The position numbers were made by a program, and so were the translations under genes. DNA of 51,548 nt, taken from Escherichia phage SKA49. The number at the start of each line of letters is the position of its first letter. Position 1 is the stretch's first letter. The stretch is from sequence record NC_079180.1, one strand, 5' to 3'. The notes beneath the pieces are model-generated. The model was not told the origin of the DNA, searched no databases, and worked only from the letters and a program-made list of their open reading frames with translations. Shown here in pieces: positions 5,893 through 51,383 of the stretch.

Positions 5893-5898
5893 TTTCCT

Positions 5899-5925: not shown

Positions 5926-5955
5926 CTGAATATTATTAATCAACTTGGAGCATTT

Positions 5956-6954: not shown

Positions 6955-6994
6955 ATTAACAAGGAGCATTCATTGAGTGTTCCTGATTAATCTA

Positions 6995-7013
6995 ACATTA
7001 GTTGGATATGAGG
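6995..7013 (+). promoter_or_regulatory. phage promoter-like motif ACATTAGTTGGATATGAGG
   Basis: Conserved motif about 70 nt upstream of gene 7084. Confidence 0.55.
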
Positions 7014-7083
7014 GACAAAGCTATTCCGTGGTTAGCAATGTCACTGAAACTTAAACTGTAATTAACTTAAGAGAATCTTAATC

Positions 7084-7464
7084 ATGGCACAATATTCAGA
7101 TGTAAACACTGGCATTATCGGTCCTAACGGCTTCAAGAAAGACCCAAAACATCCTGACATTCGTGGACGTATTAACGTTGACGGAATCTGGTATTGGGTA
7201 TCCGGTTGGAACAAGCAAGCAAATGGTAATGAGTTTACCTCACTTGCATTAACCATCATGACCCAAGAACAGGTCGATGAAATGATGCGTAAGCGTGAAG
7301 AGAAAGCTAAAGCCAAAGCTCAACCTCAAGCTGCCGCTCAACAGCAACAGCCTCGACAGCAACCTTCCGCACAACAGCAAGCTCCTGCTCAGCAACAAGC
7401 TCCGCAGTCGTCTGCATACAACCCAAATGAACCACAGGACTTTGACAGCGACATTCCGTTCTAG
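7084..7464 (+). CDS. small protein with bacterial-SSB-type C-terminal tail (ends NEPQDFDSDIPF); candidate mini-SSB or SSB-tail mimic
   Basis: Trp/Gly-rich N-terminal domain, Q/A/P-rich linker, C-terminal acidic tip ending DIPF as in bacterial SSB. Confidence 0.5.
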   Translation: MAQYSDVNTGIIGPNGFKKDPKHPDIRGRINVDGIWYWVSGWNKQANGNEFTSLALTIMTQEQVDEMMRKREEKAKAKAQPQAAAQQQQPRQQPSAQQQAPAQQQAPQSSAYNPNEPQDFDSDIPF

Positions 7465-7585
7465 TGGAGATGCCCTATGAAAATTCTATGTTTTATAGGG
7501 CTACATAATTGGGAAATTTCACACGAAAACGATTATGTAACCATTTGGGTGTGCAGTCACTGTTCAACAATGCGTGAGGAATATC

Positions 7586-8062
7586 ATGGCAAATAAATTT
7601 GTCGAAATACCTGCCAACTTGGTTAAAGCTGGCGACGTATTAGTATACAGCAACAGGGAATATTTAATCGTAAAAGTTCTGCGATTTAGTTCTGTGGTTC
7701 AACTCCAATATTCCGGAGGATACTACAATTTTGAGTTTGGGCGCATAGTAAAAGTGTTGGACAGGCCACCAGCTTCGGGAACTCCAACAATCGAGTTCCC
7801 TAACCAAATAAATCCAGTATTCATTCCTGTGGAGAACAACATGGAAACTTTAAATATCCAAAATGCAATCGAAGCACAACGTATTCTTCTGCAAAAGCTG
7901 GAGCAAATGCTTGATTTAACACAGCTTCCTCCAACAGAAGATGGCAAGATGGCAATTGGCAATGCATCAATTCGCGTGGACAAGGCAACAGTTGTTAAAG
8001 CCGCACGCGATGAAATGAAAGCTGCCGCAAGCAAATCCGCAGAGCTTATCAAGAAATTATGA
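7586..8062 (+). CDS. hypothetical protein (158 aa)
   Basis: ATG with GAGGA RBS; in frame with track ORF 7574..8062. Confidence 0.55.
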   Translation: MANKFVEIPANLVKAGDVLVYSNREYLIVKVLRFSSVVQLQYSGGYYNFEFGRIVKVLDRPPASGTPTIEFPNQINPVFIPVENNMETLNIQNAIEAQRILLQKLEQMLDLTQLPPTEDGKMAIGNASIRVDKATVVKAARDEMKAAASKSAELIKKL

Positions 8063-8802: not shown

Positions 8803-9058
8803 AGAATTAGCTGACCGACTAACGGCAGCAAAGAAAGAGCTTGCAACGCACACCATTCGTGTTAATTCTCTTAAGGCACTCCCTTCTGGTGAGGAAATCT
8901 CACTATTCACAGACAATATTTGGTTTACCATGAATCGTGCGCAGTTTGTTGAGATTCAGGACCAACGTTTGGCTGAACTGGAGCAGAGAGTCAGAAATTA
9001 CGAAGGTTTGTTGCAAACTTTACAAGCAACTCTGGACCAGGAGTTGGGAAATGTCTAA
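8792..9058 (+). CDS. hypothetical coiled-coil protein (88 aa, GTG start)
   Basis: Track ORF; weak RBS. Confidence 0.4.
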   Translation: MKVEELADRLTAAKKELATHTIRVNSLKALPSGEEISLFTDNIWFTMNRAQFVEIQDQRLAELEQRVRNYEGLLQTLQATLDQELGNV

Positions 9059-9467
9059 TGTTAAGTTGGGCCAACGCTCACTTGACCGACTCAAAGGTGT
9101 AAATCCCTCATTAGTGGCAGTTTTCAAGCGTGCATGTGAAACAATGCCGTTTGATGTAACTGTTCTTGAAGGATTGCGCACTTATGAGCGGCAACAAGAG
9201 CTTTTAAAGCAGGGTGCAACCAAAGTTTCAGTTAGCCGACACATGTCAGGCAATGCTTTAGATATTGCACCGTATCCAATTGACTGGAATGACCTCGAAC
9301 GATTCAAAGTTTTAGCTCATCATATGTTCAAAGCTGCAAAAGAGCTTGGAATTACCATTCGTTGGGGTGGGAACTGGGGCCGTATTGATGAAAATCAACC
9401 GTATCCACCACTCGCACCAGGTAAGAAGAAGCTGATTGATATGCCGCACTTCGAACTTCCAGCATAA
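9051..9467 (+). CDS. peptidase M15-family peptidoglycan hydrolase (L-alanyl-D-glutamate peptidase-like)
   Basis: LEGLRTYERQQELLKQGATKVSVSRHMSGNALDIAPYPIDWNDLERF resembles the His/Asp zinc-site block of T5-type endolysins; GGAG RBS; in frame with track ORF 8937..9467. Confidence 0.65.
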   Translation: MSNVKLGQRSLDRLKGVNPSLVAVFKRACETMPFDVTVLEGLRTYERQQELLKQGATKVSVSRHMSGNALDIAPYPIDWNDLERFKVLAHHMFKAAKELGITIRWGGNWGRIDENQPYPPLAPGKKKLIDMPHFELPA

Positions 9468-21381: not shown

Positions 21382-21810
21382 ATGAAGTGTTGTCGCATTT
21401 GTGGTGAATCCAAACCTCTTACTGACTTTGGTTGCACCAAGAAGAGTAAGGATGGTCGTGATACTATGTGCAAATCTTGCAAGAATGTGAGAAGCAGACA
21501 GCATTACAATCTAAACTCTAGTAGGATAAAAGAGCATCAACGAACTTACCTGGCAAGCAATAAAGAAACCAAGTATGCGTCGTCTGCTGCATATCGTAAT
21601 GGCTTCCCAAACAAAATTCGTGCACACCGTATGGTGAATGATGCGCTGCGAAGAGGGAAGATTTCAAAACAACCTTGTGAGTGCTGCGGAAACTTATCAG
21701 CGATTGCTCACCACGATGATTACCTCAAGCCAATGGTTGTACGTTGGCTGTGCAGAAAGCACCACGCTGAATGGCACAGAGATAATGGAGAAGCACTAAA
21801 TGGCAAGTAA
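21382..21810 (+). CDS. HNH endonuclease
   Basis: N-terminal CxxC...CxxC and CECCGNLSAIAHHDDYLKPMVVRWLCRKHHAEWH. Confidence 0.65.
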   Translation: MKCCRICGESKPLTDFGCTKKSKDGRDTMCKSCKNVRSRQHYNLNSSRIKEHQRTYLASNKETKYASSAAYRNGFPNKIRAHRMVNDALRRGKISKQPCECCGNLSAIAHHDDYLKPMVVRWLCRKHHAEWHRDNGEALNGK

Positions 21811-22825
21811 GAAGAAAATCCTTTTGCTGGTCGATTTTGATATGGTGGCATTTAGTCATTGTGCGGCAGAAGAATTTGGGAAAGAGCCAGAAGATATAAA
21901 TTTCTCAAAGATTCAAATGTCAATGGACTCTAAGATGGAGTTCTTGTCGAAGCGTTCTGGCGCAACTCATGTTATGGGTTTCGTATCTCCTTCTAAGACA
22001 ATGCGAAACGTGTTTGCCGAAAATTATAAAGGCAATCGAGATAACGTGTGGCGTCCAGAAAACTTAAAGAATGCCAAGGCCCACTTGCTTGTTGCATGGA
22101 ATGGGTATTGGATGAAAGGTCTGGAAGCAGATGACCTTCTCGCTGTATTCGCACGTCATGAATACGAAATGACAATGGGTAAACGTAATGAGATTAAGAG
22201 CCTCACTCGTATTGGTCCGTGCACATATGACGAAGTCTGGATTGCATCGTTGGACAAAGACTTGCGCCAAATCGGGCAGAATGGTGGTGTTGGTCCAGTA
22301 ATCAAACATTACCAATGGGAACGAGAAACCCAGGGTATTGGTGAGAAGGTTGTAACTCCTCAGGATTACGGCGAACTCAAACTAATCATCAAGGACAATG
22401 GCAAGTCGAAGAAGAAAGAAGTCAAAGGCAATGGCCCTAAATTCTTCTTGCATCAATTGCTTATTGGCGACTCAACGGATAACGTTATGGGTTGCGGAGT
22501 TCTTGAAGAAAGAATTTACAAAACTGGTGCCAAAGCCGGAGAAACTTATTTCCGTCGTGATGGCATTGGTGCAGTTGCTTCATTCGAAATGCTGGATGGT
22601 ACAACATCCTATGCAGAAGGTTTGAAGAAAGTTATTGGTGCATACATTATGCGCTTCGGAGATGGTTGGGAACAAGAGCTGCTCAAAGTGGGCCGTCTTG
22701 TTTACATGCACCATCAAATTGAAAAGGGTAATTGTGTTCGCTTGTGGCATTACAAGAACATTAACGAATACTTTGACCTTAAAGAGAATCGTATCCTCAC
22801 TCAAGAAGAGTATCTCCAGAAATAA
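21800..22825 (+). CDS. 5'-3' exonuclease / flap endonuclease
   Basis: ILLLVDFDMVAFS, GLEADDLLAVFA and LIGDSTDNVMGCG resemble Pol I 5'-exonuclease motifs. Confidence 0.8.
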   Translation: MASKKKILLLVDFDMVAFSHCAAEEFGKEPEDINFSKIQMSMDSKMEFLSKRSGATHVMGFVSPSKTMRNVFAENYKGNRDNVWRPENLKNAKAHLLVAWNGYWMKGLEADDLLAVFARHEYEMTMGKRNEIKSLTRIGPCTYDEVWIASLDKDLRQIGQNGGVGPVIKHYQWERETQGIGEKVVTPQDYGELKLIIKDNGKSKKKEVKGNGPKFFLHQLLIGDSTDNVMGCGVLEERIYKTGAKAGETYFRRDGIGAVASFEMLDGTTSYAEGLKKVIGAYIMRFGDGWEQELLKVGRLVYMHHQIEKGNCVRLWHYKNINEYFDLKENRILTQEEYLQK

Positions 22826-33594: not shown

Positions 33595-34103
33595 TTTACG
33601 ATGAAGATATTCAGGCGATTAAGGATATTGTGGACGTCTGTGTGGGCGTCCCACGCTTCTCCTATGAGATGCAGGTAAACGCACCTCGACCATCTGATAA
33701 CTATGCCGCAATAAAGTGTGTGTCGTCAGTTAATCCAGGCTTTGATGAAACTCGAATCGAAGTCCGTAATGGCGAGGAGGTATTTGTTACGAGAGGGATT
33801 CGAATTCTAACTTTCTATATTCTCTTCTCACGTCGTGGGAGTGAATATGTTAAGTTCGACAATTCCTTCTTCCGTCCAGATGTTCAGGCCATGCTTAAAA
33901 GTAAAGGCTTTGCAACACTCGACAAAAATCCACTGAATCTTGCCTCGTTAACTCTTGAGACGAATTGGGAATTCCGAGAAGGAATCCAAATCAAATTCAA
34001 TGTTCTGCGTGAAGACGTAATGAATATTGGAACAATGTCTGACGCCAGTGTTGGCGGCAAATTCTATGATGGTGGTGAACCCATCCTAATTAAGGGAATC
34101 TAA
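33591..34103 (+). CDS. tail completion/neck protein (putative)
   Basis: Track ORF, position only. Confidence 0.45.
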   Translation: MIYDEDIQAIKDIVDVCVGVPRFSYEMQVNAPRPSDNYAAIKCVSSVNPGFDETRIEVRNGEEVFVTRGIRILTFYILFSRRGSEYVKFDNSFFRPDVQAMLKSKGFATLDKNPLNLASLTLETNWEFREGIQIKFNVLREDVMNIGTMSDASVGGKFYDGGEPILIKGI

Positions 34104-35552
34104 ATGGCAATTCCAATTTCCGATATCATCCAGGTCAACATTGCGGTATCTCCGAATGCTGTTGCCGTGGAAGGTTTTGGTCCTCTGCTCTTTCTTTCGA
34201 AGGAGTTTAAACCGACTGCTGCCGAAGTAGTTCCTGTTCGTCAATATACGAGCATGGCTGCGGTGTCTGCGGATTTCCCATCCGGTGAAATCTATAATGC
34301 AGCTTTGGCGTGGTATTCTCAGAAACCTACTCCGAAATATTTCCTGGTTGGTGCAATCACTCATGAAGACGTGGTTCCTGCAACTGCTGGCACTATCACT
34401 GCTTCTACTGCTGCAAACCTGGACGACATTAAGGCTGTAACCTCTGGTGTAATTTCCATCAACATCAACGGCGTTGATATGCACACTGGTGCTATCAACT
34501 TCTCTACCGTAACAGACTTTGCTGGTGCTGCTTCTGCAATGACTGCTGCATTCGTGACTGCTGGCATTCCTGCAACCGTCTCCCAGACTACTGGTGTGTT
34601 CAAAATCACTACCAACCTGACTGGCGACACTGCTGTTATCGGTGATGTATACGGCACTGCTGCAAGTGCTTTCAAGCTGGATGCAAACTCAAGTCCAGTA
34701 TTTGCCCAGGGTAAAGACGAACAGTCTATTGGTTCTGACCTGTCTGCAATTCTGAACTCCACTTACAACTTCTTCTTCGTTGCTATTGACCGTAAGTACC
34801 GCGGCGGCGCCTCTGGTGATAACCAGATGACTGTTGCTAAGTGGGCAGAAGCGAACGAGAAAGTGTTCGGCTGGGCTGACAGTGACCCGCAGATTCTGGT
34901 TGTTGGTGCAGAGTCTAGCTTTAAGCGCGCCAAAGAACAGAACCTCCAGCGTACCTTGCTGGTTTATGATGCGTCTGATAATGGCGACGAATATCCAGAA
35001 ATCTCCATCCTTGGTCGTGCATCAACTGTCAACTTCAACGTTGCAAACTCTTCGCTTGTCCTGGCGTTCAAACAGGGTCCGGCTATCAAGACTGCTGACC
35101 TGTCTCCGAACCAGCTTGCTGCCCTCGAACGTGTAAATGGTAACGCATTCATCAACGTTGGTGGGAACACTATGTTCTACAACGGCAAGATGGCTGACGG
35201 CACTTGGTTCGATACCGTTCAGGGTGTGTCTTGGCTGACCTCCAAGATTCGTGCGAACGTGTTCAACCTGTTCTATACCTCCACTACCAAGATTCCTTGG
35301 ACGGATACCGGCGTTGCCCTGGTCAACCAGCAAGTAACTCTGGCACTGGAACTGGCTGTAACCAATGGTCTGATTGCCCCAGGTTACGACAATGAAGGCA
35401 ACTTCTACCCAGATGGCTACAAAGTCTTGTCTACCGACTTGGCTCTGATGCAATCTCAGAAAGGTGCTCGAATCTGGGAAGGTACTTCCTTCATTGCAAT
35501 TGGCTCTGGCGCATTGCAGGGTGCAGTTATCTCCGGCAACTTCGTTCAGTAA
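34104..35552 (+). CDS. tail sheath protein
   Basis: 482 aa, host-optimal codons, directly before tube, chaperone and tape-measure genes. Confidence 0.6.
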   Translation: MAIPISDIIQVNIAVSPNAVAVEGFGPLLFLSKEFKPTAAEVVPVRQYTSMAAVSADFPSGEIYNAALAWYSQKPTPKYFLVGAITHEDVVPATAGTITASTAANLDDIKAVTSGVISININGVDMHTGAINFSTVTDFAGAASAMTAAFVTAGIPATVSQTTGVFKITTNLTGDTAVIGDVYGTAASAFKLDANSSPVFAQGKDEQSIGSDLSAILNSTYNFFFVAIDRKYRGGASGDNQMTVAKWAEANEKVFGWADSDPQILVVGAESSFKRAKEQNLQRTLLVYDASDNGDEYPEISILGRASTVNFNVANSSLVLAFKQGPAIKTADLSPNQLAALERVNGNAFINVGGNTMFYNGKMADGTWFDTVQGVSWLTSKIRANVFNLFYTSTTKIPWTDTGVALVNQQVTLALELAVTNGLIAPGYDNEGNFYPDGYKVLSTDLALMQSQKGARIWEGTSFIAIGSGALQGAVISGNFVQ

Positions 35553-36030: not shown

Positions 36031-36489
36031 ATGGCTTGTGAATTGCTTCAACGTGAATTCACAAACTCCAAAGGCGAAACAGTGTTAGTCGTTGTTCGAC
36101 AATTGTCGGCTTCGGCTGCACTGTCTCTTCACGCGGAGTTGGTAAGCAAGTTAGGCTCACGAGTATTTCCATTCATCGAAGGTAAATATAACTTCGCTGA
36201 TATTATATACTTGATGCAGCAAGTAGAGCATACCGTATTCACAGAATTGTTTAAGCGTGTTATCAGCATGCACTCGTCCATAGACGGACAAGAAATCAAA
36301 CCTGCATTATATGATATGCAGTTCAATGGCGAATTGATGTTGTCTTGCCATGTCTTTGCTTTCGTGCTCGAAGCAAACTTCCTTGATTTTTTCAAGCAAG
36401 GGCTCGAAATCCACGAACAGAGACGATTGGAGGCGGAGGAAGCATCCAAGCTGGCAGAGCAGAAGAATTCGAGTCCGGAGACAGTTTAG
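36031..36489 (+). CDS. tail assembly chaperone (zero-frame product)
   Basis: Position between tube and tape-measure genes; contains slippery site near 3' end. Confidence 0.55.
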   Translation: MACELLQREFTNSKGETVLVVVRQLSASAALSLHAELVSKLGSRVFPFIEGKYNFADIIYLMQQVEHTVFTELFKRVISMHSSIDGQEIKPALYDMQFNGELMLSCHVFAFVLEANFLDFFKQGLEIHEQRRLEAEEASKLAEQKNSSPETV

Positions 36490-36665
36490 TATCCCTGTTC
36501 CCCGACATAAAATATTTTCTGCATCGTCCTATAATCGAAGACAGTTCTCTCTGCAAGTTACGTGAATTGCAAGATGGAACCTATTCGATTATGGACTTAT
36601 TGCTATTCCACGACATTCTCGATTTGCGTAAGAAACTCGAACCAGTAGATGAAGACAATGGCTAA
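36031..36665 (+). CDS. predicted -1 frameshift product of tail assembly chaperone (G-T / E-E'-like)
   Basis: Slippery heptamer T_TTT_TTC at 36387-36393; -1 frame stop TGA 36384-36386 immediately upstream; -1 frame open for 93 codons to TAA 36663-36665, overlapping the tape-measure start. Confidence 0.5.
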
Positions 36666-39600
36666 TCAAAAAGATTTAATGAAGTTGAGCGTTAATGAGT
36701 TAATTGCATTAGGCTCTCAAAGCGGTCTGACTTTCCATGCTGGTATGAAGAAGTCGCACATGGTTCAACAACTTAGTGCGAGCGCTGCTTCGGGATGGCT
36801 GGATACAAATGCAGAATTAATGGGTGGGTCGTTTGAAGATGACAGTTTAATTACTGAATCTTTGGGCGACTCTTCCATGATTTCAGACGCTGCCCACATT
36901 GCACAAGTGCTTTCAAGTGCTGGCTACACAGAAGCATTTCATGCAGCAATGAATGGCCCAACACACCATGTAGAAGCTGTTCACGCATACATGGAAAGGC
37001 TTGGTGTCAACACAGATGATGTGTGGATGCACATGCCAAAGCCAAATCCGAACTTACCGCAAGGTAGCTTCAACATGCTTAATGCCTATATGCGAGATAC
37101 TTTGCAAGGGCATCAAGATATTATGCCAGAAATCCCAGGCCACTATGCTGGGGATATTATGGCTGAATACTCCACCAACCGTGGAAACATTGCTGACTCA
37201 TATAACTACATGGCTCACATGTATGTTGACCGTGAGCAATACAGCAATCATGAACAATACGCAAGAGACATTAGTCGAGTTGCCAAACGTCTGGAACAAG
37301 AGTTACCCGCAGCCTTTAAGGAAGTTGGGTATACCTCGGCCTCTAATGTAGGAAATAAATCGGCCCCACATATTTCTTACATGGATGCACTTCCTCAGAT
37401 TGGTTCTCCTTCAATTGTTTCTGGCATTGCACATCCTCGTGCACCTCTTAACGCATCTGGACTTCCTCTTGGTTCTTATGGTTCTGGCATAAATCCAGAA
37501 TACTCCCTCACTGCATCATTAACTGGTGGCACTGGTTGGAGTGAACCAAGCAAGGCTTTATATTCCTCTATTAGTGAAGCTGTTAAATCTGCTGCCAAAG
37601 TTTATTCTGGTTCCAAAGGGATGATGAATACTCGTCACGAAGTATCTGACCGTGACATGATTATGGACAGCGCAACTCGCTATACAGATTTGGAAGAAGC
37701 CAGAAGCGGGTACGAAAACCTTCGTTCTGAACTTGCAGATGAACCGGCTTATTCTGCATCGAGTGTTCGAGCTATTCTCGAAAACACTTATGACAAAATG
37801 GATTCCGAACCTGTTCGCATTCCAAAGATGAAGGGAGCATCTCAGCGAGTCGAAAAAGATTCGCAATCAACATCTACAGAATTTACAGCACAACTTGGAG
37901 AGGCCACCAATTGGAACTCTGCAAGAATGCGTCGTGAGGAAATTGCGATTGCAAATATGGATAGTGCTGGATTCCGTGATGTATCAGACTATGGTACAGG
38001 ACGTTCCGAGTCTCCCGTCAGATTCCATGACTTAGAACAGGGCAGCCAAGAGTGGCTAGACTTCCGTAAAAACTATGACATAACTGGTTCAACTGTTGGA
38101 ACTTTCTTAGGAAACAACCCATACACCCGACCTTGGGCGGGAATGATTGACAAGATTGGTCTATCTCGTAGTAAAGAGCACAGCGATTTCACTAAGAAGA
38201 TGTTCGCTGATGGTCACAGGACGGAAGAAGAAGCACGCGCTCGTGTTGGTAAGGAATTTGGATTCGATATCAAACAAACTGGCGCTATAACAAATGACAA
38301 CTATCCCGCCTTCATGTATTCTCCTGATGGTCTTATTGGCGATGATGCCATTTGGGAGCACAAGAATCCGCAAAGGGCTGGTAAGTTTGCTGACCTTCTT
38401 AAAGGCGACCATCCAGATTACATGGACCAAATTCAATTTGGTATGCACGTTTCTGGCCGTTCTCGTGCTTTGTTCTCACAAACCATCAACGACGAAACAC
38501 GTTCACAGTGGATTGAGAAGGACGAAGGATGGTACGAGAGAAACAGAAATCGCCTTGATTCTGTTCTTGGCCGTCTTGATGCTGGGCGAGAGTTTGTTAG
38601 AAACAATGCTGGACTAGACCGAGAAGAACTGATTGCTGGTGCAAGAAGTGCAATGACTGGTGATGGTATCTGGAAGGATATTCGTCAAAGGTCAACTCGT
38701 GGCTACTCTGCCATTGCTGGAACTCCAGAAGACCCATTTATTGGTTCACGTTCTTCGTACAATCCAAAGGCATCATATTCTGACTACCAGCCAAACTTTG
38801 TAATGCACGAGCAAAACTTTCCAGCAACCACAGGAAACGGTGATACTGGAAACGACTCGATGGCATTGTCTGTTAAGAAAGGTATCCTTGCTGCTCAGGA
38901 AGAAAACAGGCAGAAGGGTATTGGTGCAGATGCAGACTTTAATGGCAAAGCCGATTCAATGGGTTGGGACCGCGAAAGATTTGATGCTGCCAATGGCGGT
39001 GGATATTCTGGCGGTGGTGGTGGTCGTGGCGGCAACTTCACAAGCGGTGGCAACTACTATGATGACTACGGTCGCATGGGTGGTTCACTAGCTGCTGGCA
39101 TTGCTGGAGGTAGTATTGGTTCAGCAACCAACGGAGTTATGCAAGCATTAATGGCAACTCCTGCGGGACGTATGGCTGCTGTAGGCATTGGTGCTATTCA
39201 GATTGGCAATGAAGCTGCTGAATACATGAATGACTTTATCGGCAACTCGCTTGATGCTGGCGTGATAAATCCTAATGAATACTCTTCTATGTCGCAAGGC
39301 TTGGAGATGTTAGGACTCAACTCACAACAAGCGGCACGTCTGAATCAAACCACACATAGTGCCTACAACACCATGCTTAACGGCGACCCCAGCGCCGCTG
39401 TGAACATCGTTCGCGGCAGTAGGGGATTGCTCACCATAGGTGATATTCGTGCGACAGGCGGCGACCCTGTGGCCCTAGCTCGCATCATGCAGGAAAGGGG
39501 CAAGGAGCGTGGCTGGAGTCAGGCCCGTATCGCAGGTGCTGCCGAAATGGCTGGCCTGAATGGGATGGCGCGAGCCTACGACCGCACGGAATACAGCCAT

Positions 39601-40374
39601 GAGCAAGCTGGTTCGGTGGTAGAAGCGGGTAGAAACTCTGACTTTGCCGAAGGTATGGCCCAGTCGGAAATGTTGCAGGGAAGCCGCGCACGGATGCTGC
39701 CGAGCTACAACGTGCCACAAAGTGTCTTATCTAACGGTGCTTCCGTATTCGAGGCTGGCAGTGATTCACTTGATAGTGTACGCACTGGATTCAATAATAC
39801 GCGAGAATTTGCTGGAAGTGTTTACGACTTTATCGCCCAGGAAGAATCTGGCGGTCGTGAATATAACAAAGATGGTTCTCGTGTAACAAGTCGTACTGGT
39901 GCTCGTGGGATAATGCAGATTCTTCCTTCAACAGCTCGTGACCCAGGATTTGGAATCAGGCCGTCTGATGGAACTCCGGAAGATGATGCACGAGTTGGTC
40001 GTGAATATTATGACGCAATGTACAAGCGTTATGGCGACCACGAAAAGGCAATGGCTGCTTACACCGATGGTCCTGGAACTGTTGACAAAGCTGTTGATAA
40101 GAATGGGCTGGATTGGCTAACTGCTGTTCCTGTACAAGCACAGAATCGCGTCAAAGCATTCCGTGAATGGGCCAAGTCTTCTCAGACTTTGGAAGAAGGT
40201 GCTACAGGGTTTACTCGCAATGGAATGTCGTACGGTCAAACCCAAACTGTTGTTAATGTTAAGATTGATGCTAAGGTCAACAACCAGACTGCTTCTGCTA
40301 CAGTGGCAATTCCTGGTGGTCAGACTGTGACTCAACAAATGAACATGCACAATGGTGCGCAACAAAGAAGATAA
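36649..40374 (+). CDS. tape-measure-like large virion protein with C-terminal lytic transglycosylase domain
   Basis: Transglycosylase motifs QEESGG, GARGIMQILPSTA, AYTDGPGTV; Gly-rich segment; N-terminal Rho_N-like LSVNELIALGSQSGL; mid-region YqaJ-like motifs ITGSTVG...NPY, EHKNP, DQIQFGMHVSG. Confidence 0.6.
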   Translation: MKTMANQKDLMKLSVNELIALGSQSGLTFHAGMKKSHMVQQLSASAASGWLDTNAELMGGSFEDDSLITESLGDSSMISDAAHIAQVLSSAGYTEAFHAAMNGPTHHVEAVHAYMERLGVNTDDVWMHMPKPNPNLPQGSFNMLNAYMRDTLQGHQDIMPEIPGHYAGDIMAEYSTNRGNIADSYNYMAHMYVDREQYSNHEQYARDISRVAKRLEQELPAAFKEVGYTSASNVGNKSAPHISYMDALPQIGSPSIVSGIAHPRAPLNASGLPLGSYGSGINPEYSLTASLTGGTGWSEPSKALYSSISEAVKSAAKVYSGSKGMMNTRHEVSDRDMIMDSATRYTDLEEARSGYENLRSELADEPAYSASSVRAILENTYDKMDSEPVRIPKMKGASQRVEKDSQSTSTEFTAQLGEATNWNSARMRREEIAIANMDSAGFRDVSDYGTGRSESPVRFHDLEQGSQEWLDFRKNYDITGSTVGTFLGNNPYTRPWAGMIDKIGLSRSKEHSDFTKKMFADGHRTEEEARARVGKEFGFDIKQTGAITNDNYPAFMYSPDGLIGDDAIWEHKNPQRAGKFADLLKGDHPDYMDQIQFGMHVSGRSRALFSQTINDETRSQWIEKDEGWYERNRNRLDSVLGRLDAGREFVRNNAGLDREELIAGARSAMTGDGIWKDIRQRSTRGYSAIAGTPEDPFIGSRSSYNPKASYSDYQPNFVMHEQNFPATTGNGDTGNDSMALSVKKGILAAQEENRQKGIGADADFNGKADSMGWDRERFDAANGGGYSGGGGGRGGNFTSGGNYYDDYGRMGGSLAAGIAGGSIGSATNGVMQALMATPAGRMAAVGIGAIQIGNEAAEYMNDFIGNSLDAGVINPNEYSSMSQGLEMLGLNSQQAARLNQTTHSAYNTMLNGDPSAAVNIVRGSRGLLTIGDIRATGGDPVALARIMQERGKERGWSQARIAGAAEMAGLNGMARAYDRTEYSHEQAGSVVEAGRNSDFAEGMAQSEMLQGSRARMLPSYNVPQSVLSNGASVFEAGSDSLDSVRTGFNNTREFAGSVYDFIAQEESGGREYNKDGSRVTSRTGARGIMQILPSTARDPGFGIRPSDGTPEDDARVGREYYDAMYKRYGDHEKAMAAYTDGPGTVDKAVDKNGLDWLTAVPVQAQNRVKAFREWAKSSQTLEEGATGFTRNGMSYGQTQTVVNVKIDAKVNNQTASATVAIPGGQTVTQQMNMHNGAQQRR

Positions 40375-45101: not shown

Positions 45102-45743
45102 ATGGCTACTAAACATGGCTTGGAGATGTTGTTATCTCAGTATTACAACTCGCCAAACTTAAAGAAGTATATTTCAATCTTTGTTGAAGAGTTTGCGGAA
45201 GTTAAACAAGCCATGTCCGATTCTGTAAAGTATCGCTACCTTGCAGATTCCTTTGGCGTCATGGTTGACGACATTGCCTATATTGTTGGCACTGAACGTG
45301 TAATCTACGGCGCCGAAGCTCTCGGATACTTTGGCTTCTATCGTGACCCGTCTGCATTCCCAGCTGGGGATGACAACGACCCAGATATTGGCGGCATACT
45401 TAAGTCCGATTATGATAAAGATTCTGGCGACTTTATTCGTACAGACTTGCAACTTAAGAATGCTATCAAGGCCAGGATTACCAAAATCACTGGCAACTGT
45501 AATATCGAGCAAATCATTACATACCTTGAGCTTCTAATTGGGCGTGACTTAGACCTTGAAATCAAAGAAGGGTTTAAGCGTATGGACTACATTGTCCACG
45601 AAAGTTTGTCTGTTGCTGATAAGGTTATGCTGGCCCACACGATTCCACAATTTAAACCTGTGGGAATCACTGTAACACTTCGAGATAATAATGGCGTTAT
45701 CGACCTGGTGTTCAGTTCTAAAGACTACCCGCCGGAGACATGA
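45102..45743 (+). CDS. baseplate protein (gpI / Mu gp48-like)
   Basis: 213 aa following J-like gene. Confidence 0.45.
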   Translation: MATKHGLEMLLSQYYNSPNLKKYISIFVEEFAEVKQAMSDSVKYRYLADSFGVMVDDIAYIVGTERVIYGAEALGYFGFYRDPSAFPAGDDNDPDIGGILKSDYDKDSGDFIRTDLQLKNAIKARITKITGNCNIEQIITYLELLIGRDLDLEIKEGFKRMDYIVHESLSVADKVMLAHTIPQFKPVGITVTLRDNNGVIDLVFSSKDYPPET

Positions 45744-46888
45744 TGACTAAACGCTTAACATTTAAATTCCCTTGGGCGCAAGATGGTGAAATTGCTGACC
45801 CAGACTTAGACACAACCAACCCAAGTTATGTTGCAAACCGATATGCAAGCATGGGCTGGGAAGCTGAGAAGCCACCAAACGAATGGCAGAACTTCTTAAC
45901 ACAGATTAGTGATTTAAAGATTATGTCTTTACTCTTCTCTGGTGTGGCAGAGTTTGATAGTAGTGTTACATATCAAACTGGTGCAGTGTCTGTTCTCAAT
46001 GGTGTTGTGCAAATTAAGGTTGCCTCTGGCTGGGAACAAATCCTAGACATGAAGACTGTAGATTATCTAAATGATGTTGCAGCATTGAAACTCATTTATG
46101 ACAATCACATGGCTACCGAGAATCCGCACAACGACACAGTTGATACGCTGGTGGATAAAGGAAGAACAAAGGCAAATATTGATATTGCCTTTGGGAGTGC
46201 TACCGACCCTCAAACAATTGTTTATCACAAATTGCAACAAGGTCGTGTTCACCAGGAAACTCCAGAGCAGGTTGGCACTCTTCCAACATCTGGTGGTACA
46301 TTCACTGGTCCTGTGTCGTTCCTTGCTGGGATGAAATTTGCGACAGACAACACTGTTAGTATGAACGGTGCAACAGGTCGTTTGGAACTTCGTAGTGGTA
46401 GTCGTATTCTGTCTATTGATGCTCTAGGAAATGTTGTCTGGAGCATAGTTGGTGGTGAAGAATATCCCGTGATGACGGAGCTGAATTACTCAGAGTTTCA
46501 GATTCGTTGGGGAAACAGATTTGCCCTACCGACACCATACTTGAGTATGAACCTATCAGCCAGTATTAACGATGCTTGCTCTGTTCGTGGTTGGAAGATT
46601 TCAACAACGGGAACACCAGTATTTCACCCTATGGGTGGGTTGAAGATGGATGACAATACTGTAACCTTCTCCGGATTTGATGTTTCTTGTCCAACCACAA
46701 TAGTGGCCTTTACAAGAAATGCTTCCGGCACTCTTGGGAGAGGTAACTCTGATGCTCCGTCTGGTGGTTATACAAGCCTTAACACACTCCTTACGAATCT
46801 TGGAATAGTTGATGCTGCTTACGTCGTGAGTATCACTTGCTATCCAACATTAACCGCTTATCAGAAATCAATGTTAGTGAGGCCATAA
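45740..46888 (+). CDS. tail fibre protein
   Basis: 382 aa after baseplate genes. Confidence 0.5.
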   Translation: MMTKRLTFKFPWAQDGEIADPDLDTTNPSYVANRYASMGWEAEKPPNEWQNFLTQISDLKIMSLLFSGVAEFDSSVTYQTGAVSVLNGVVQIKVASGWEQILDMKTVDYLNDVAALKLIYDNHMATENPHNDTVDTLVDKGRTKANIDIAFGSATDPQTIVYHKLQQGRVHQETPEQVGTLPTSGGTFTGPVSFLAGMKFATDNTVSMNGATGRLELRSGSRILSIDALGNVVWSIVGGEEYPVMTELNYSEFQIRWGNRFALPTPYLSMNLSASINDACSVRGWKISTTGTPVFHPMGGLKMDDNTVTFSGFDVSCPTTIVAFTRNASGTLGRGNSDAPSGGYTSLNTLLTNLGIVDAAYVVSITCYPTLTAYQKSMLVRP

Positions 46889-48279
46889 TGGCGCTTCGTC
46901 CTAAATTAAATCGCGTATGGACTTCAAATAACACTGTTGCCAGACGTGACCCAGGGGATGCAAAGTATCTCCAAGGTTGGGTTGCTGAGATACCAACCTA
47001 TCAAGTTTTAAACTATTTGCAGTATAAAGTTGATACCACAATGCTTGCTCAGGCGGAACGTGGAATCTTCGAGTGGGGTGGTGATGTTTCTTATGGTGTT
47101 GGCAGTTTGGCTTGGGACGAAACAAACAAAACTATTTATGTTTGTACTGTAACAAACCCAAGCAAGACTTTGGCCCCAAGTGCCAACCCAGCACAATGGA
47201 GTCCGAGCGCCATTCAGGTATCTCGTGCCAACTATGACTCTGTTGTATCTGCAATCAATACCCATATTGCAAACCGAGCAAACCCTCACCAAGTAACTGC
47301 TGCACAGGTTGGTACATACAACCGTGCTGAAATGGATGCACTTGTATCCAACTATCGAGCAATGGTGTTGGCGCATGCCTCTGACTACAACAACCCACAT
47401 AAGCTAACTGCTGTTCAAGTTGGTGCTGTTCCTGTAACTGGTGGTGAGTATACTGGTCAGGTAACTATGCCGACCGCCTACTTCAATGCCTCCAAGACTG
47501 CACAACTGTTGCAAGACAATGGACTATGGTTGAAGAATGGCAACTACTTACTAGGTATTAACGGTACGACAGGGAATCCCGAAGCAGGAACTGCTGCAAG
47601 CAAGTCCAGGATAGTCACAGAATCTAACTTCCCAGACTTGAAAGCTGCACAAGAGCCTAAATATGCAGTAGAAGCGCCATACTATGAAATGGCACTAATA
47701 GGTTCTGTAAACATACTTCGTGGCGCAGGAACATTCAGTACCGGAGACTCCGAGCCTATGTACTTGGCATCATCTGGGAATGCTCTAACATTCGACAGCA
47801 CACCAACCAGCCCAGCACAGAGATTCGAAGCCTCTTCACAACTTCCTGCTAGCTCAAGTATTACAGTCTGTGCCGATGTTATGAGGGTGTCACAGTCTGA
47901 TACGAGTGATGGCAACTGGCAGCTGAGTTTCGGCACCGCAGATTTCAATATCACTATTGGGTACAATGGGTATACGACCATCAGGTTCAGAGGCCCAACA
48001 GGAGGTATTGTTGCAATGCAGGGGGTAATCTCCCAAGATTTGAAAACTGTTGGTGTGTGGAACAGGTTGTCGGCAACACTTTCTGGAAGCACTATTAAGG
48101 TGTTTGTAAACGGTGTACTGCTATTCTCCAGAGAGCAAGAAGTGGGTGTTGCAGTTGGGAGAGCGCCATTTATAACTAAATGGAGTATGGTTGGGGCTAC
48201 CACAAACTCTAGAATATCTATTAGGTCTTTTAGGTTGTGGAACTCGGCACTAACAGACAAACAAATTTCAACTTTATAG
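46888..48279 (+). CDS. tail fibre protein
   Basis: ATG with GAGG RBS; in frame with track ORF 46837..48279. Confidence 0.5.
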   Translation: MALRPKLNRVWTSNNTVARRDPGDAKYLQGWVAEIPTYQVLNYLQYKVDTTMLAQAERGIFEWGGDVSYGVGSLAWDETNKTIYVCTVTNPSKTLAPSANPAQWSPSAIQVSRANYDSVVSAINTHIANRANPHQVTAAQVGTYNRAEMDALVSNYRAMVLAHASDYNNPHKLTAVQVGAVPVTGGEYTGQVTMPTAYFNASKTAQLLQDNGLWLKNGNYLLGINGTTGNPEAGTAASKSRIVTESNFPDLKAAQEPKYAVEAPYYEMALIGSVNILRGAGTFSTGDSEPMYLASSGNALTFDSTPTSPAQRFEASSQLPASSSITVCADVMRVSQSDTSDGNWQLSFGTADFNITIGYNGYTTIRFRGPTGGIVAMQGVISQDLKTVGVWNRLSATLSGSTIKVFVNGVLLFSREQEVGVAVGRAPFITKWSMVGATTNSRISIRSFRLWNSALTDKQISTL

Positions 48280-48287
48280 GATTCAAA

Positions 48288-49361
48288 ATGGCTAAAGGTT
48301 ATTCTTTAGATGCGCTAGTTCAAGAGCACTACATTAAAGATGCAGTTGGTTTAGATGTCAGCAATATAAATGATAAGTGGGGCGCGGATAATGTAGGGAC
48401 ATTCTTCCAAAACCTGCATGTAAATGCAACAGTTGAGAACGGGTATCCTTACGGAGCCTCGGCAGGCAACTTGGAAGTGCTACTTACTAATGCCGGTACT
48501 CTTGATAACTGCGTACAGAGATACACAAACTTTAATGATTTAAGAATGTGGATTCGCTCTCAAGACCGTGGAGCTGGAAACAGGACTTGGACACCTTGGA
48601 TGGAGCTTATAAATGCGAACAACATTTATAAAGCAATCTACCCAATTGGAATTGTTCTCCAGTTTGACAATGCCACCAACCCAAATAACTCCTTCACAGG
48701 AACATCTTGGGTACAAATCGTAGATGGTCGCTCTGTTCGTGCAGCGTCTTCTGCGGAAGTTGGCACTGAACTTGGTCAGATTGGTGCGATTGTTGGTGAA
48801 GATGAAGTTACCATTGCTGTGGCTAACCTCCCATCCCACACTCACAACATGCGTAACCATACACACTCCATCGCGTCCCACACACACACTATGGCCCACA
48901 CGCACTCAATCAACCACGACCACGGTGCAGTGACCTCAAGTTCAGGTGGTGCTCACACGCACAGCTTAAGCGGCACTGCTGCTTCTGCTGGTGCACACCA
49001 ACACACAGAAGGTTCGCCGTTTACTGGTGATGTCAATTTTGGTGCTACCTCAAGCACCAGTAAGAATAATATCAAAGACTGGTTGTACAGCCCATCTACA
49101 AGATACCCGCTAACCTCATCTTCCGGTGCCCATACACACAGTGTTAGTGGAACTGCCAACTCTGCTGGCGCTCACACGCACTCTGTAGACCTGCCTAACT
49201 TCACTGGCACTAGCGGAGGCTCTAGCGCAGGAAGCACTGGTGGAACAGCTTTGACAACTGGTGCTCCTAGCTCTAACGAATCGGATGCGACTGGTGGTGG
49301 CTCTAAGCTGACCGTCCGTAACGCCTCACACTATTATGCCCTCTGGAAACGAGTGGCTTAA
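48288..49361 (+). CDS. tail fibre protein with collar-like domain and HxH repeat tract
   Basis: HTHNMRNHTHSIASHTHTMAHTHSINHDH followed by GGAHTHS and GAHTHS repeats; ATG with AGGA RBS; in frame with track ORF 48237..49361. Confidence 0.55.
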   Translation: MAKGYSLDALVQEHYIKDAVGLDVSNINDKWGADNVGTFFQNLHVNATVENGYPYGASAGNLEVLLTNAGTLDNCVQRYTNFNDLRMWIRSQDRGAGNRTWTPWMELINANNIYKAIYPIGIVLQFDNATNPNNSFTGTSWVQIVDGRSVRAASSAEVGTELGQIGAIVGEDEVTIAVANLPSHTHNMRNHTHSIASHTHTMAHTHSINHDHGAVTSSSGGAHTHSLSGTAASAGAHQHTEGSPFTGDVNFGATSSTSKNNIKDWLYSPSTRYPLTSSSGAHTHSVSGTANSAGAHTHSVDLPNFTGTSGGSSAGSTGGTALTTGAPSSNESDATGGGSKLTVRNASHYYALWKRVA

Positions 49362-49728: not shown

Positions 49729-50283
49729 ATGCTATCATTCAAAGTCCTTGCACTTCTGGCAGCTTTAGTTCACATCAACGCCCCAGCTTCGGTTGGGGCA
49801 GTGAATTCTGCTATTACAGATTTTGCAAGTCATTCTTATTTAAATGGAAGTCTGAAACTATCTTCTTCACAACGCAAAGAGCTAGAATGCTACACTAAAG
49901 TTATCTGGTATGAAGCTCGCGGAGAAGACAAACATGGAAAGATTCTGGTAGCTAATGTCGTCCGTAATAGAACTGAGTTCGGGAAGCCATTCGCTAACAC
50001 CGTTTGTGATGTTGTCTATCAACGCAATCAATTTGCATGGACACGAGAAGCAAAGAAGAAGAATGCTCAATGGAAGCATGTAGCAAAGATTAATTATGCC
50101 ACAGAACAACAACAAGTTCTGGACACCATTAGTGTTGCAATCTCTTTTGTACTATTTAATCAACCCTCTGTCACCAAAGCAACCCACTTTTGTACAGCAT
50201 CTGAGAAGTGCAACTTCAAGAATGTTAAAGGTCTGGGACGTTATGGTGGCCATAAATTCTATGAGTATCTAGGAAATCTGTAA
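49729..50283 (+). CDS. SleB/CwlJ-like cell wall hydrolase with N-terminal signal sequence (endolysin candidate)
   Basis: [25 protein letters not shown]...[15 protein letters not shown]; N-terminus [24 protein letters not shown]; AAGGA RBS. Confidence 0.7.
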
Positions 50284-51383
50284 TGGCTTACACTACCTTT
50301 TCACAAACCAAGAATAACCAACTACTAGAGCCAATGTTCTTTGGTCAGAACGTTAACGTTGCTCGATATGACCAACAGAAGTACAGCATCTTCGAGAAGT
50401 TAATCGAGAAGCAGTTGTCTTTCTTTTGGCGACCTGAGGAGGTTGATGTTAGCCAGGACCGAATTGACTATGCTGGTCTTCCTGAGTGTGAGAAACACAT
50501 TTTCACCAGCAATTTACGATACCAAATCTTGCTTGATTCCATTCAGGGACGTGGGCCAACTACAGTTTTGCTACCAATTGTGAGCATTCCTGAGCTTGAA
50601 ACTTGGATTGAAACTTGGTCATTCTCAGAGACAATTCACTCTCGTTCTTACACGCATATTATTCGCAATATTGTCACCGACCCAAGCGTCATCTTTGATG
50701 AAATTGTGGAGAATGAGCATATTAAAATGCGTGCAATTGGCATCTCCCAATATTATGACGAGCTTCAACACCTGACTTCCATGTGGCATCTGCATGAAGA
50801 TAAAGTTTCTCTTCGTGAGCTTAAGAAGAAGCTGTATTTATGCCTAATGTCCATCAATGCACTGGAAGCAATTCGCTTTTATGTCAGTTTTGCTTGCTCA
50901 TTTGCCTTCGCTGAACGCAAGTTAATGGAAGGAAATGCCAAGATTATTCGCTTAATTGCTCGTGATGAAGCGCTCCATTTGACCGGAACTCAACACATGC
51001 TGAACCTTCTTGCAAGCGGTGCTGATGACCCAGAAATGGCCGAAATTGCTAAAGAATGCCGCCAAGAATGCCAAGAAATGTTCGAAAATGTGGCCCAACA
51101 AGAGAAAGATTGGGCTGATTATTTGTTCAAAGATGGCTCAATGATTGGCTTAAACAGGCAAATTCTGTGCGGATATGTGGAATATATTACAAATATTCGT
51201 ATGCAAGCAGTTGGATTGGATGCTCCATTCAAAGGTGCTACTAACCCGATTCCTTGGATTAACGCATGGTTGAATTCGGATGCTGTACAAGTTGCTCCAC
51301 AAGAAACGGAGATTAGTTCGTACCTTGTTGGGCAGATTGACTCCGAAGTTGACACCAATGCTCTAGGCGGATTTGAACTATGA
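50283..51383 (+). CDS. nrdB: class Ia ribonucleotide reductase beta subunit
   Basis: Near-colinear with enterobacterial NrdB as I recall it: [54 protein letters not shown]-terminal [13 protein letters not shown]; one short internal deletion. Confidence 0.85.

Follow-up and report, generated by a model that had tools for sequence, protein, structure and literature searches.

Lambda exonuclease (Red-alpha) and LHK-Exo (Laribacter hongkongensis) are nucleases of the YqaJ family (PF09588): free-standing, cytoplasmic proteins of ~200-230 aa that are made after infection and paired with an annealase. For lambda Exo, a need for double-stranded ends carrying a 5' phosphate is well established. Tape-measure proteins set tail length, and several of them carry cell-wall-degrading domains or help build a membrane conduit; enzymatic or cell-wall-active examples include T5 pb2, those of mycobacteriophage TM4 and its relatives, and staphylococcal and lactococcal tape measures. 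In other phages, virion proteins are proposed or shown to enter the cell with the DNA and act on its ends, such as the injected end-binding proteins T4 gp2 and Mu N. 80alpha gp44, also ejected, attaches to genome ends, protects them and helps the genome to circularise (PMC7290940).

The protein we describe here, from Escherichia phage SKA49, shares traits with all of these. Its YqaJ domain is of the same family as lambda Exo and LHK-Exo but, unlike them, is embedded (aa 456-690) in a 1241-aa tail protein, and a scan of 10 ORFs turned up no annealase gene to go with it. As with T5 pb2 and the TM4 types, the ruler follows a G/GT chaperone and contains a peptidoglycan-degrading entry domain, here a lytic transglycosylase (SLT); as far as is known, the cargo domains described so far act on the cell wall, whereas SKA49 adds a DNA nuclease. 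Like T7 gp16, an internal core/ejection protein, it would be a virion protein that is ejected and has a lytic transglycosylase of the Slt type, and a T7-like RNA polymerase is common to SKA49's phage family and T7. T7 gp16 differs in being stored in the podovirus capsid, in having its transglycosylase at the N-terminus and in lacking a nuclease domain, and we detected no homology between the two proteins beyond the SLT core. The action that we propose on DNA ends, with protection from host exonucleases and circularisation upon entry, recalls 80alpha gp44, T4 gp2 and Mu N; these, however, bind ends without nuclease chemistry and outside tape measures, while the SKA49 protein is predicted to resect, and it has no sequence relationship to any of the three. 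The published descriptions of Chaseviridae phages that we consulted call the protein a tail fibre, a structural protein or a tape measure and do not mention a nuclease. Our literature search found no paper describing the nuclease of the Chaseviridae tape measure and, among searchable papers, no description of any tape measure with a DNA nuclease domain.

The gene in the tape-measure slot

The window (the whole stretch of DNA that was analysed, 51,548 nucleotides, NC_079180.1) is nearly the whole genome of a Chaseviridae myophage (Carltongylesvirus, ST32-like). Its tail genes follow the order terminator, sheath, tube, TAC (PF21822), the ORF at 36649-40374, Dit-like, Pam3 gp18-like plug, spike and Baseplate_J, and annotation of this cluster gave no other large ORF. 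The following features surround the start of the gene:

36031..36489, + strand: tail assembly chaperone gene (G-like), 152 aa, directly 5' of the large ORF; Pfam PF21822 Phage_TAC_15, E 3.5e-18
36387..36393, + strand: slippery heptamer T_TTT_TTC for a -1 programmed frameshift of the G/GT type, in the 0 frame of the chaperone gene
36393..36665, + strand: T-like -1 frame extension, 90 codons, ending within the start of the tape-measure ORF
36649..40374, + strand: ORF in the tape-measure slot, 1241 aa; probable true start ATG 36658

A preliminary description of this DNA had reported the 1241-aa ORF on this strand and placed it in the tape-measure position, and both statements hold. The ORF is present, with the second ATG (36658) as its probable start since MAN... 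opens most homologues, and it lies where a tape-measure gene is expected, 3' of a -1 frameshifting G/GT chaperone and 5' of the Dit-like (distal-tail) and baseplate genes. The -1 frame is open from the slip site itself to its stop at 36663-36665 and contains no ATG, GTG or TTG start; its counterpart in ST32 is 'gp65', annotated with a CTG start. T_TTT_TTC is also in frame at five related loci, some of them distant (L004, L005, L006, L008 and L009), where the arrangement of chaperone, frameshift and tape measure is likewise kept.

The product matches PHROG 19855 over its full length, and its gene is 97.6% identical in nucleotides to ST32 gp66. We found 91 homologues of the 1241-aa protein. The Chaseviridae orthologues are 36-98% identical over their full length and have a common domain order, and the SKA49 tape measure is the same protein as ST32 gp66, phiEcoM-GJ1 gp62, Mangalitsa gp68 and the proteins of 4HA13 and PP101 (all PHROG 19855). 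In database records the gene goes by "tail fiber" or "virion structural protein", and it appears as 'putative tail fiber' or 'tail fiber protein' in ST32, phiEcoM-GJ1, DE15, SA91KD, Bp7 and flopper. That these labels are right and the product is a tail fibre is hardly credible: the gene is placed between the frameshifting chaperone and the Dit-like/baseplate genes, the protein has SLT and nuclease domains instead of any fibre-like domain, distinct fibre genes lie downstream (45740-49361), and the records of Mangalitsa, PP101 and 4HA13 say tape measure. At 1.5 A per residue, a ruler of 1241 aa would measure ~186 nm, for reported tails of 110-166 nm; without the nuclease and SLT domains, ~890 aa would give ~130 nm. 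The AF2 model consists of many short helices and disordered linkers, with no classic long coiled coil. The product of 36649-40374 is best explained as a modular tail tape-measure protein of a Chaseviridae myophage.

Domains of the tape-measure protein

Along the protein we distinguish the following parts:

36667..36789, + strand: N-terminal helix-extended-helix, SAP/Rho_N-like, aa 7-47
36880..37788, + strand: helical domain of unknown function, aa 78-380
38014..38718, + strand: lambda-exonuclease/YqaJ PD-(D/E)xK domain, aa 456-690
38326-38328, 38356-38358 and 38362-38364, + strand: nuclease catalytic residues D560, E570 and K572
38746..39078, + strand: low-complexity Gly-rich linker, predicted disordered, aa 700-810; pLDDT <50, lowest conservation, indels
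39079..39213, + strand: Gly/Ala-rich, moderately hydrophobic stretch, aa 811-855
39223..39648, + strand: conserved helical domain, aa 859-1000; pLDDT ~90
39823..40185, + strand: Slt70-type lytic transglycosylase, aa 1059-1179; catalytic E1066 at 39844-39846
40246..40371, + strand: conserved C-terminal beta-strand tail, aa 1200-1241

The mid-protein region had been likened to YqaJ/lambda-exonuclease PD-(D/E)xK nucleases, and sequence, profile and predicted fold bear this out. Pfam YqaJ PF09588 matches aa 468-604 (E 1.9e-13; 51.4 bits, the cut-off being 22) over positions 1-149 of the 150-position profile; NCBIfam TIGR03033 reaches 55.4 bits, under its stricter cut-off of 68; and in PHROG the domain matches RecE-like exonuclease families. 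A family profile compared with the PDB finds 3syy at E 1.7e-16 and lambda Exo at E 8.8e-7, and the domain is predicted to adopt a PD-(D/E)xK fold with the three-dimensional shape of lambda Exo. D560, E570 and K572 align with lambda D119, E129 and K131 (the PD-(D/E)xK triad), E526 with lambda E85, and R473, S481 and Q594 with R28, S35 and Q157 of the 5'-phosphate pocket. The motifs quoted in the preliminary description are genuine and fall on functional positions of this alignment: ITGSTVG contains T479 and S481 (lambda T33 and S35), SPDG...WEHK the triad, and YMDQIQFGM Y591, Q594 and Q596 (lambda Y154, Q157 and Q159). Across 76 homologues, with identity down to 36%, R473, S481, E526, D560, E570, K572, Y591 and Q594 are invariant, and the motifs are largely retained in more distant tape-measure-slot proteins (962-1534 aa), all of them 3' of a TAC_15 gene. 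The two findings named beforehand as refuting the nuclease, a fold other than PD-(D/E)xK and motif residues that vary among homologues, both failed to appear. Judged by these residues, the domain is catalytically intact and apparently active. One close relative of the domain, the free-standing P0103, is fused to a T7 gp5.9 RecBCD-inhibitor domain, which we take as a hint towards the role proposed below.

For the C-terminal lytic transglycosylase, Pfam and PDB profiles agree with the earlier claim. SLT PF01464 matches aa 1061-1152 (E 6.7e-13; 48.7 bits, the cut-off being 21.3) and, like that to YqaJ, this match is far past chance. Profile matches in the PDB are Slt70 and P. aeruginosa Slt at ~E 1e-5, and weakly T7 gp16 (6yt5_G, E 0.066). 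The catalytic Glu in its E-S motif, GxMQ and AYxxG are all present: E1066 and S1067, which lie in QEESGG, show no variation in 38 sequences and reach at least 90% conservation in the alignments of 76 sequences, and Q1090 (GIMQ), A1137, Y1138 and G1141 (AYTDG) are invariant or nearly so. The domain has a pLDDT of 80-90 in the AF2 model; its top Foldseek matches, Cj0843 and Slt, reach E 7e-3 to 1e-2, modest values owing to disorder in the remainder of the model.

At the N-terminus the model predicts two helices joined by an extended linker containing Gly and Leu, with SAP/Rho_N similarity at the level of the fold. The Rho_N/SAP-like element that had been proposed here thus stands for fold and weak profile but not as a Pfam family, searches of aa 1-60 and of aa 1-450 at cut-offs up to E 10 giving no match to Rho_N (PF07498) or any other model. 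The poly-Gly tract, also reported before, is located at aa 781-800. The adjoining aa 811-855 hold the protein's top Kyte-Doolittle 19-residue window (1.2, under the usual transmembrane threshold) and are a possible membrane-interacting segment, to which we attach low confidence. The helical domain at aa 859-1000 is among the best-conserved blocks and is found also in the distant P0159. The C-terminus is conserved, with three strands predicted at low pLDDT, and by analogy with other tape measures this tail may dock into the baseplate hub.

Exchange of the nuclease domain between close relatives

Comparison with contig L004 delimited one further feature:

37999..38750, + strand: recombination cassette, coinciding with the nuclease domain

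Nucleotide identity between the two, 95-100% elsewhere, drops to 58-76% solely within this interval, and the protein-level identity profile drops in the same place. Among near-identical genes (flanks 98-100%), nuclease alleles are just 55-63% identical, with the catalytic residues fixed, and the cassette has been swapped independently several times. The nuclease domain acts as a recombination cassette, newly recognised here, and its exchange with catalytic residues unchanged is evidence of selection on the domain. There is no difference in kind between SKA49 and its Chaseviridae orthologues: SKA49 carries one particular cassette allele.

These alleles bear on whether the YqaJ fold is a catalytic unit at all. 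It could be a non-catalytic module, either a plug or clamp that binds DNA ends and keeps hold of the genome end or guides it, or extra ruler length. Motifs embedded in mycobacteriophage tape measures add to tail length, the N-terminal half with its SAP/Rho_N-like N-terminus resembles a DNA-binding unit, and ejection proteins that bind ends without nuclease activity exist (80alpha gp44). Yet the residues aligned to the metal, catalytic and 5'-phosphate sites of lambda Exo do not vary across 76 sequences while identity elsewhere in the domain falls to 55-63%, and they are retained in distant relatives as well. An invariant site amid a diverging domain would not be expected of a relic or a purely structural module, and we regard a non-catalytic role as improbable.

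Proposed delivery and action of the nuclease

The 4HA13 orthologue (P0025, 63% identical, 1204 aa) ranked second among the proteins of CsCl-purified virions, its peptides covering 64-67% of the sequence (PMC9699118). The same preparation contained SSB too, hence non-structural proteins (PMC9699118), and this coverage is no proof that the nuclease segment itself is virion-borne. The nuclease could also act late, in the producing cell and before assembly, in recombination or concatemer processing, with the whole protein moonlighting or its N-terminal half cleaved off; the fusion would then serve co-expression and not delivery. Tape-measure protein is produced late and in large amounts, the annotated phage genome has no separate YqaJ/RecE-type gene, and the disordered Gly-rich linker (aa 700-810) lies between the halves, so that proteolytic processing there is conceivable; such processing is known for some tape measures, e.g. 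lambda gpH. We nonetheless find a late role distinctly unlikely: coverage of 64-67% of the 1204-aa orthologue exceeds what the C-terminal half (~515 aa) alone could give, the fusion is kept at the same position lineage-wide, no relative among those recovered has the halves as separate genes, and a dedicated T7 gp6-like exonuclease is already encoded.

We propose instead, at slightly less than an even chance, that the nuclease of the expelled tape measure resects the ends of the incoming linear phage genome, aiding annealing and/or evasion of RecBCD. Upon sheath contraction the tape measure would leave the tube ahead of the DNA and its C-terminal transglycosylase would cleave peptidoglycan; the N-terminal half would exit last, adjoin the leading DNA end and enter the cell with it. 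A difficulty for this reading is the myophage tube lumen, which at ~4 nm should not admit a folded nuclease of ~26 kDa, let alone a trimeric ring; the domain would have to pass unfolded and refold inside the cell. Tape measures in phages with solved tails are trimers; if this one is too, its copy number would suit the trimeric ring of lambda Exo and LHK-Exo. The refolded nuclease would remove the 5' strand of the incoming genome, baring complementary 3' tails through which the terminal repeats could anneal into a circle or concatemer, and turning blunt ends, the preferred substrate of RecBCD, into long 3' overhangs. Chaseviridae genomes are linear and terminally redundant, with direct repeats of ~3 kb (PMC12842549); the repeat lies outside the window. 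Several points count against end resection: a trimeric tape measure would mean a single trimer per virion, yet annealing of repeats requires resection at both ends; the phage has a separate 5'-3' exonuclease gene, the T7 gp6-like one (21800-22825, PHROG 107); and the model has short helices where a tape measure would classically have a long coiled coil. The scan of 10 ORFs revealed no protein for single-strand annealing.

A virion-delivered nuclease might also target DNA other than the phage genome (host, plasmid, prophage, superinfecting phage or defence-system DNA), as a takeover or anti-defence effector. Catalytic residues are intact in a virion-associated protein, and cassette exchange around a fixed active site is expected of a part engaged in an arms race with the host. 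Against such targets, lambda-type exonucleases require free double-stranded ends with a 5' phosphate, and the pocket residues aligned to lambda R28 and S35 are conserved in the tape-measure nuclease; few copies per virion, at most, would reach a cell; no partner endonuclease is evident within the protein (Pfam, PHROG); and the closest DNA end upon delivery would be the phage's own. We therefore hold such an effector to be unlikely. The preliminary description had suggested a role in genome ejection or against host DNA; since a circular chromosome has no free ends, we think it likelier that the nuclease would act on the ends of the phage DNA as it comes in than that it would attack the host's. 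A fuller version of end resection is possible, if rather doubtful: once ejected, the tape-measure chains would refold as a lambda-Exo-like ring on the leading genome end, resect that end and shield it from RecBCD before phage expression, and start circularisation or concatemer formation, the exchange of cassettes reflecting an arms race against host factors able to inhibit or sense the ring.

The sequence of this locus suggests that the virus may inject a DNA-end-processing enzyme along with its genome. If the nuclease is delivered with the DNA, a pre-made virion enzyme, and not early gene products, would carry out end resection, repeat annealing and escape from RecBCD, which bears on the old question of how linear genomes with terminal redundancy survive the opening minutes of infection and become circular in that time. 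It would be the first DNA-acting enzyme shown to travel through a phage tail within the tape measure, and would extend the cargo of contractile tails from wall-active to DNA-acting enzymes, with relevance to engineered phage and tailocin delivery. Whatever its role, the "tail fiber" label that many database records use for the gene needs correcting. Cassette-like exchange of the nuclease among near-identical phages points to a surface of interaction with the host; as Chaseviridae (phiEcoM-GJ1, ST32) are candidates for therapy and biocontrol, the nuclease cassette could influence host range, and its alleles offer an easy natural experiment through allele swaps.

Tape-measure identity of the large ORF

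The large ORF (36649-40374, + strand) is real and comprises 1241 codons. At the DNA level, it matches gp66 of Escherichia phage ST32 over its full length with 97.6% identity; about 12 other coliphages match it at 93-97% identity, Mangalitsa at 83%, and phiEcoM-GJ1 partially. The matching phages belong to the Chaseviridae, subfamily Cleopatravirinae, genus Carltongylesvirus. The gene order of the window follows that of ST32 from the T7-like RNA polymerase (331-2445) at one end to the RNR small subunit (50283-51383) at the other, so that the window represents nearly the whole genome. Judging from homologues, which mostly begin MAN..., the true start would probably be the second ATG, at 36658. 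The names that databases give to this ORF vary ("tail fiber", "virion structural protein", "hypothetical protein", "tape measure protein"), and PHROG 19855 ("virion structural protein") covers the protein end to end; it already stands in databases as an orthologue group, and both of its Pfam domains are computable. One relative is found in record PP952070.1, 'Staphylococcus phage Pel53' (host Staphylococcus hyicus), with ~90% nucleotide identity to this E. coli Chaseviridae gene and a protein 77% identical to that of the window over the full length. The Staphylococcus host of this record looks doubtful.

Tail genes of the window, in order

neck terminator (PF23961), before the sheath
sheath (DUF3383, E217 gp31-like), after the terminator
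tube protein, between sheath and tail assembly chaperone
36031-36489, tail assembly chaperone (PF21822), directly upstream of the large ORF
36387-36393, slippery heptamer T_TTT_TTC, in frame within the chaperone gene
large ORF
364-aa protein, next after the large ORF
Dit-like protein, after the 364-aa protein
Pam3 gp18-like plug, after the Dit-like protein
spike N-domain protein, between the plug and Baseplate_J
Baseplate_J protein, last of the listed neighbours

Opening exactly at the heptamer, the -1 frame stays open for 90 codons; its stop (36663-36665) already lies within the beginning of the large ORF. This extension lacks a usual start codon; in ST32 it is annotated as a separate small ORF, 'gp65', which begins at CTG. 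The predicted GT-like product would have ~211 aa (36031-36665), and the frameshift appears to have been left unannotated in public records. Five related loci, some of them distant, also have an in-frame T_TTT_TTC, and in each the -1 extension that follows spans 83-96 codons and stops where the large gene starts. Tape-measure genes are classically recognised by such a chaperone with a G/GT-type frameshift just ahead of them, as in lambda, and annotations of the tail gene cluster contain no second large ORF. Calling the ORF a "tail fiber" is therefore an error, and a tail fibre is a scarcely credible reading of this protein. The tape-measure position proposed in the preliminary description is right, with the frameshifting chaperone upstream and baseplate genes downstream. 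The orthologue from phage 4HA13 (63% identical) ranks second in CsCl-purified particles, with 64-67% peptide coverage, in a preparation that also contains SSB (PMC9699118).

Nuclease and transglycosylase domains

The preliminary description had also noted motifs resembling YqaJ/lambda-exonuclease nucleases in the middle of the protein, and sequence, profile and predicted fold bear out such a domain. Pfam YqaJ matches aa 468-604 over the whole model (E 1.9e-13, well above threshold), and RecE-like exonuclease PHROG families match too. Searching the PDB with the single sequence retrieved LHK-Exo (3syy) at E 2.4e-6; with a profile of 38 homologues, the E-value for 3syy improved to 1.7e-16, and lambda exonuclease was retrieved as well (E 8.8e-7). 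For aa 456-690, AlphaFold2 modelling of aa 1-700 with 76 homologues gives a pLDDT of 89-98, and the top Foldseek matches of the model are lambda Exo and LHK-Exo (E 4e-8, TM-score 0.80). Residue correspondences were taken from HMMER alignments.

Residues of the 1241-aa protein and their counterparts in lambda Exo

W469, R473: W24, R28 (R28 is the 5'-phosphate-binding Arg)
T479, S481: T33, S35
E526, R530: E85, R89
D560: D119
E570: E129
K572: K131
Y591, Q594, Q596: Y154, Q157, Q159

All of these residues are invariant in the alignments of 38 and 76 homologues, down to 36% identity. A PD-(D/E)xK fold is thus clearly predicted, with its motif residues conserved. The fold could instead serve as a non-catalytic end-binding or spacer module, yet the invariance of the catalytic residues argues against this reading, which we consider improbable.

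The C-terminal lytic transglycosylase was likewise confirmed (Pfam SLT, aa 1061-1152, E 6.7e-13). Its catalytic pair, E1066-S1067, shows no variation across 38 sequences, and its conservation in the 76-sequence alignments is at least 90%. GIMQ and AYTDG are further conserved motifs. The family profile of the protein matches Slt70-type enzymes at ~E 1e-5 and, weakly, T7 gp16. A second model (aa 690-1241) reaches a pLDDT of 80-90 in SLT and of ~90 in a helical domain, itself conserved, that spans aa 859-1000; Foldseek matches the model best to two soluble lytic transglycosylases, Cj0843 and Slt. The genome also holds two endolysin-like genes, one in the early region (8937-9467, PHROG 465) and a late one adjoining the holin (49729-50283), bringing the predicted cell-wall-active functions to three.

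Between the two enzymes, the linker at aa 700-810, including the poly-Gly tract, shows low model confidence, poor conservation and many indels. It is followed by a Gly/Ala-rich region (aa 811-855) that is the most hydrophobic stretch of the protein; a classical transmembrane helix found no support, the maximum Kyte-Doolittle 19-residue mean of 1.2 being below the transmembrane threshold. Pfam gave no match at E 10 on aa 1-60, 1-450, 690-1060 or the C-terminal 74 aa, and the Rho_N-like N-terminus proposed from the sequence was hence not confirmed at family level. We regard the domain architecture and the tape-measure identity of the protein as very nearly certain.

Spread and exchange of the nuclease domain

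In a large protein collection, all 91 homologues have ~1200-1280 aa, apart from incomplete ones, and for nearly all of them the precomputed domains include both YqaJ and SLT. In five homologues without a precomputed YqaJ, placed in the 38-sequence alignment, the catalytic residues are invariant too. When the nuclease domain alone was searched exhaustively with HMMER against 1.8 billion cluster representatives, the matches fell into three tiers. The first consists of 11 representatives below E 1e-30, ten of them tape-measure-sized (1208-1284 aa) and one of 840 aa; the second, of proteins of 962-1534 aa in which the embedded domain occupies a comparable place. Free-standing YqaJ proteins (200-600 aa) form the third, ranking after both embedded tiers. 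Most second-tier proteins tested have Pfam YqaJ, usually with SLT; P0134, one of those tested, had no Pfam match. The second-tier proteins largely retain the W..R, G..E..R, (S/A)PDG, ExK and Y.DQ.Q..M motifs; two have SVDG in place of (S/A)PDG, and deviations in the first one or two motifs occur in the two members that diverge most. At each of the five second-tier loci examined, a TAC_15 chaperone gene immediately precedes the nuclease-bearing gene; the four longer loci share the same E217-like tail gene order. The embedded nuclease is not an accident of one genome: its presence in homologues and second-tier loci alike indicates an old, fixed feature of the tape measure throughout the lineage.

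A distant metagenomic scaffold (L006) first looked like a case of a nuclease protein split from its tape measure. Its nuclease-bearing protein has 962 aa and no detectable SLT domain, and the stretch separating it from the chaperone (4869-8000) contains uncalled ORFs of 515 and 350 aa. These are interrupted by N runs, and with such runs in the region the scaffold counts neither for nor against a split.

The nuclease domain is exchanged as a cassette, which is a new observation. Compared to the window protein, a homologue from a 53-kb contig (P0006) is only 45-72% identical over aa 441-720, against 98-100% on either side (aa 1-440 and 721-1241). The DNA of the contig (L004) tells the same: 95-100% identity on both flanks, and 58-76% only in 37999-38750, i.e. 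the nuclease domain. Pairwise comparison of 89 full-length homologues revealed nine pairs, from about four independent events, in which both flanks are >93% identical and the nuclease domains only 55-63%, as well as 29 pairs sharing a nuclease allele (>93% identical) between flanks that are <80% identical. From pair to pair, identity in the N-terminal flank tracks identity in the C-terminal flank (correlation 0.79) more closely than nuclease identity tracks either (only 0.43-0.56). Such exchange explains an oddity in the literature, the tape-measure genes of ST32 and phiEcoM-GJ1 being only 76% identical amid neighbours that are 99-100% identical (PMC6266442). Catalytic residues are unchanged across these exchanges: around a frozen active site, lineages shuffle the remainder of the domain. 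From these sequence comparisons, the pattern suggests selection from interacting host factors.

The same contig differs from the window elsewhere. There is a second mosaic patch in the sheath gene (34100-34850; nucleotide identity 61-85%, surrounding genes 93-100%), and identity is much lower in the baseplate genes from ~40400 onward (59-90%).

Genome ends and a possible role for the nuclease

According to the ICTV profile, the linear genomes of Chaseviridae are non-permuted and terminally redundant, their long terminal repeats span ~3 kb, and tails measure 116-166 nm (PMC12842549); a review gives 110-130 nm. Throughout the window (1-51548) we found no long direct repeat, and the window is ~1.5 kb shorter than ST32, hence the second repeat copy is either absent or collapsed, perhaps together with some of the first. 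A further hint toward DNA ends comes from P0103 (577 aa), among the closest free-standing relatives of the nuclease, in which YqaJ is fused to a C-terminal T7 gp5.9 RecBCD-inhibitor domain (PF25708, E 1.6e-18), which connects this nuclease clade with RecBCD and the biology of DNA ends. A tblastn search of the window with the P0103 C-terminus, a weak test, gave no convincing match to such an inhibitor (best E 0.06). Many other nuclease-domain matches (500-640 aa) combine an N-terminal YqaJ with an uncharacterised C-terminal ~350 aa.

In several phages the tape measure fills the tube lumen and leaves first on infection, with its C-terminus at the tail tip and its N-terminus near the DNA end. In our proposed mechanism, the C-terminal transglycosylase would open the peptidoglycan, the conserved helical domain, together with the Gly/Ala-rich region, would aid membrane passage, and the leading genome end would enter together with the N-terminal half (SAP-like motif and nuclease). 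The nuclease would then refold and may trimerise, since tape measures are trimers in phages with solved tails and both lambda Exo and LHK-Exo are trimeric. By resecting the 5' strand, it could, given the 3-kb direct repeats, leave ends that are ready to anneal and that RecBCD would use poorly. We advance the full scenario, in which the nuclease is delivered and acts on the ends of its own phage, tentatively, as one that falls somewhat short of probable.

Several points weigh against it. A folded domain should not fit the ~4 nm lumen, so the nuclease must travel unfolded, and one trimer cannot process both genome ends. Furthermore, 10 early and middle ORFs of the window scanned with PHROGs (SSB, an anti-restriction protein, a dNMP kinase, unknowns) include the phage's own T7 gp6-like exonuclease, and no single-strand annealing protein was detected among them. 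There are rival readings too. The domain could be an effector delivered against host, competitor or defence DNA, which we deem unlikely. The nuclease might also act late, inside the producing cell, or the N-terminal half might be processed, a reading that seems to us quite unlikely.

The nearest functional parallels to a tape-measure nuclease are injected end-binding proteins; T4 gp2 and Mu N belong here. Another is gp44 of 80alpha (PMC7290940). We found no mention of the nuclease domain in the published Chaseviridae descriptions consulted, nor any description of one within a tape measure in full-text literature searches; where co-mentions of 'YqaJ' and 'tape measure' were traced, they referred to separate genes. 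The 1241-aa protein belongs among enzyme-carrying tape measures. What appears to have gone unrecognised so far is the presence of an intact lambda-type exonuclease, swapped as a cassette, in the tape measures of an entire phage family.
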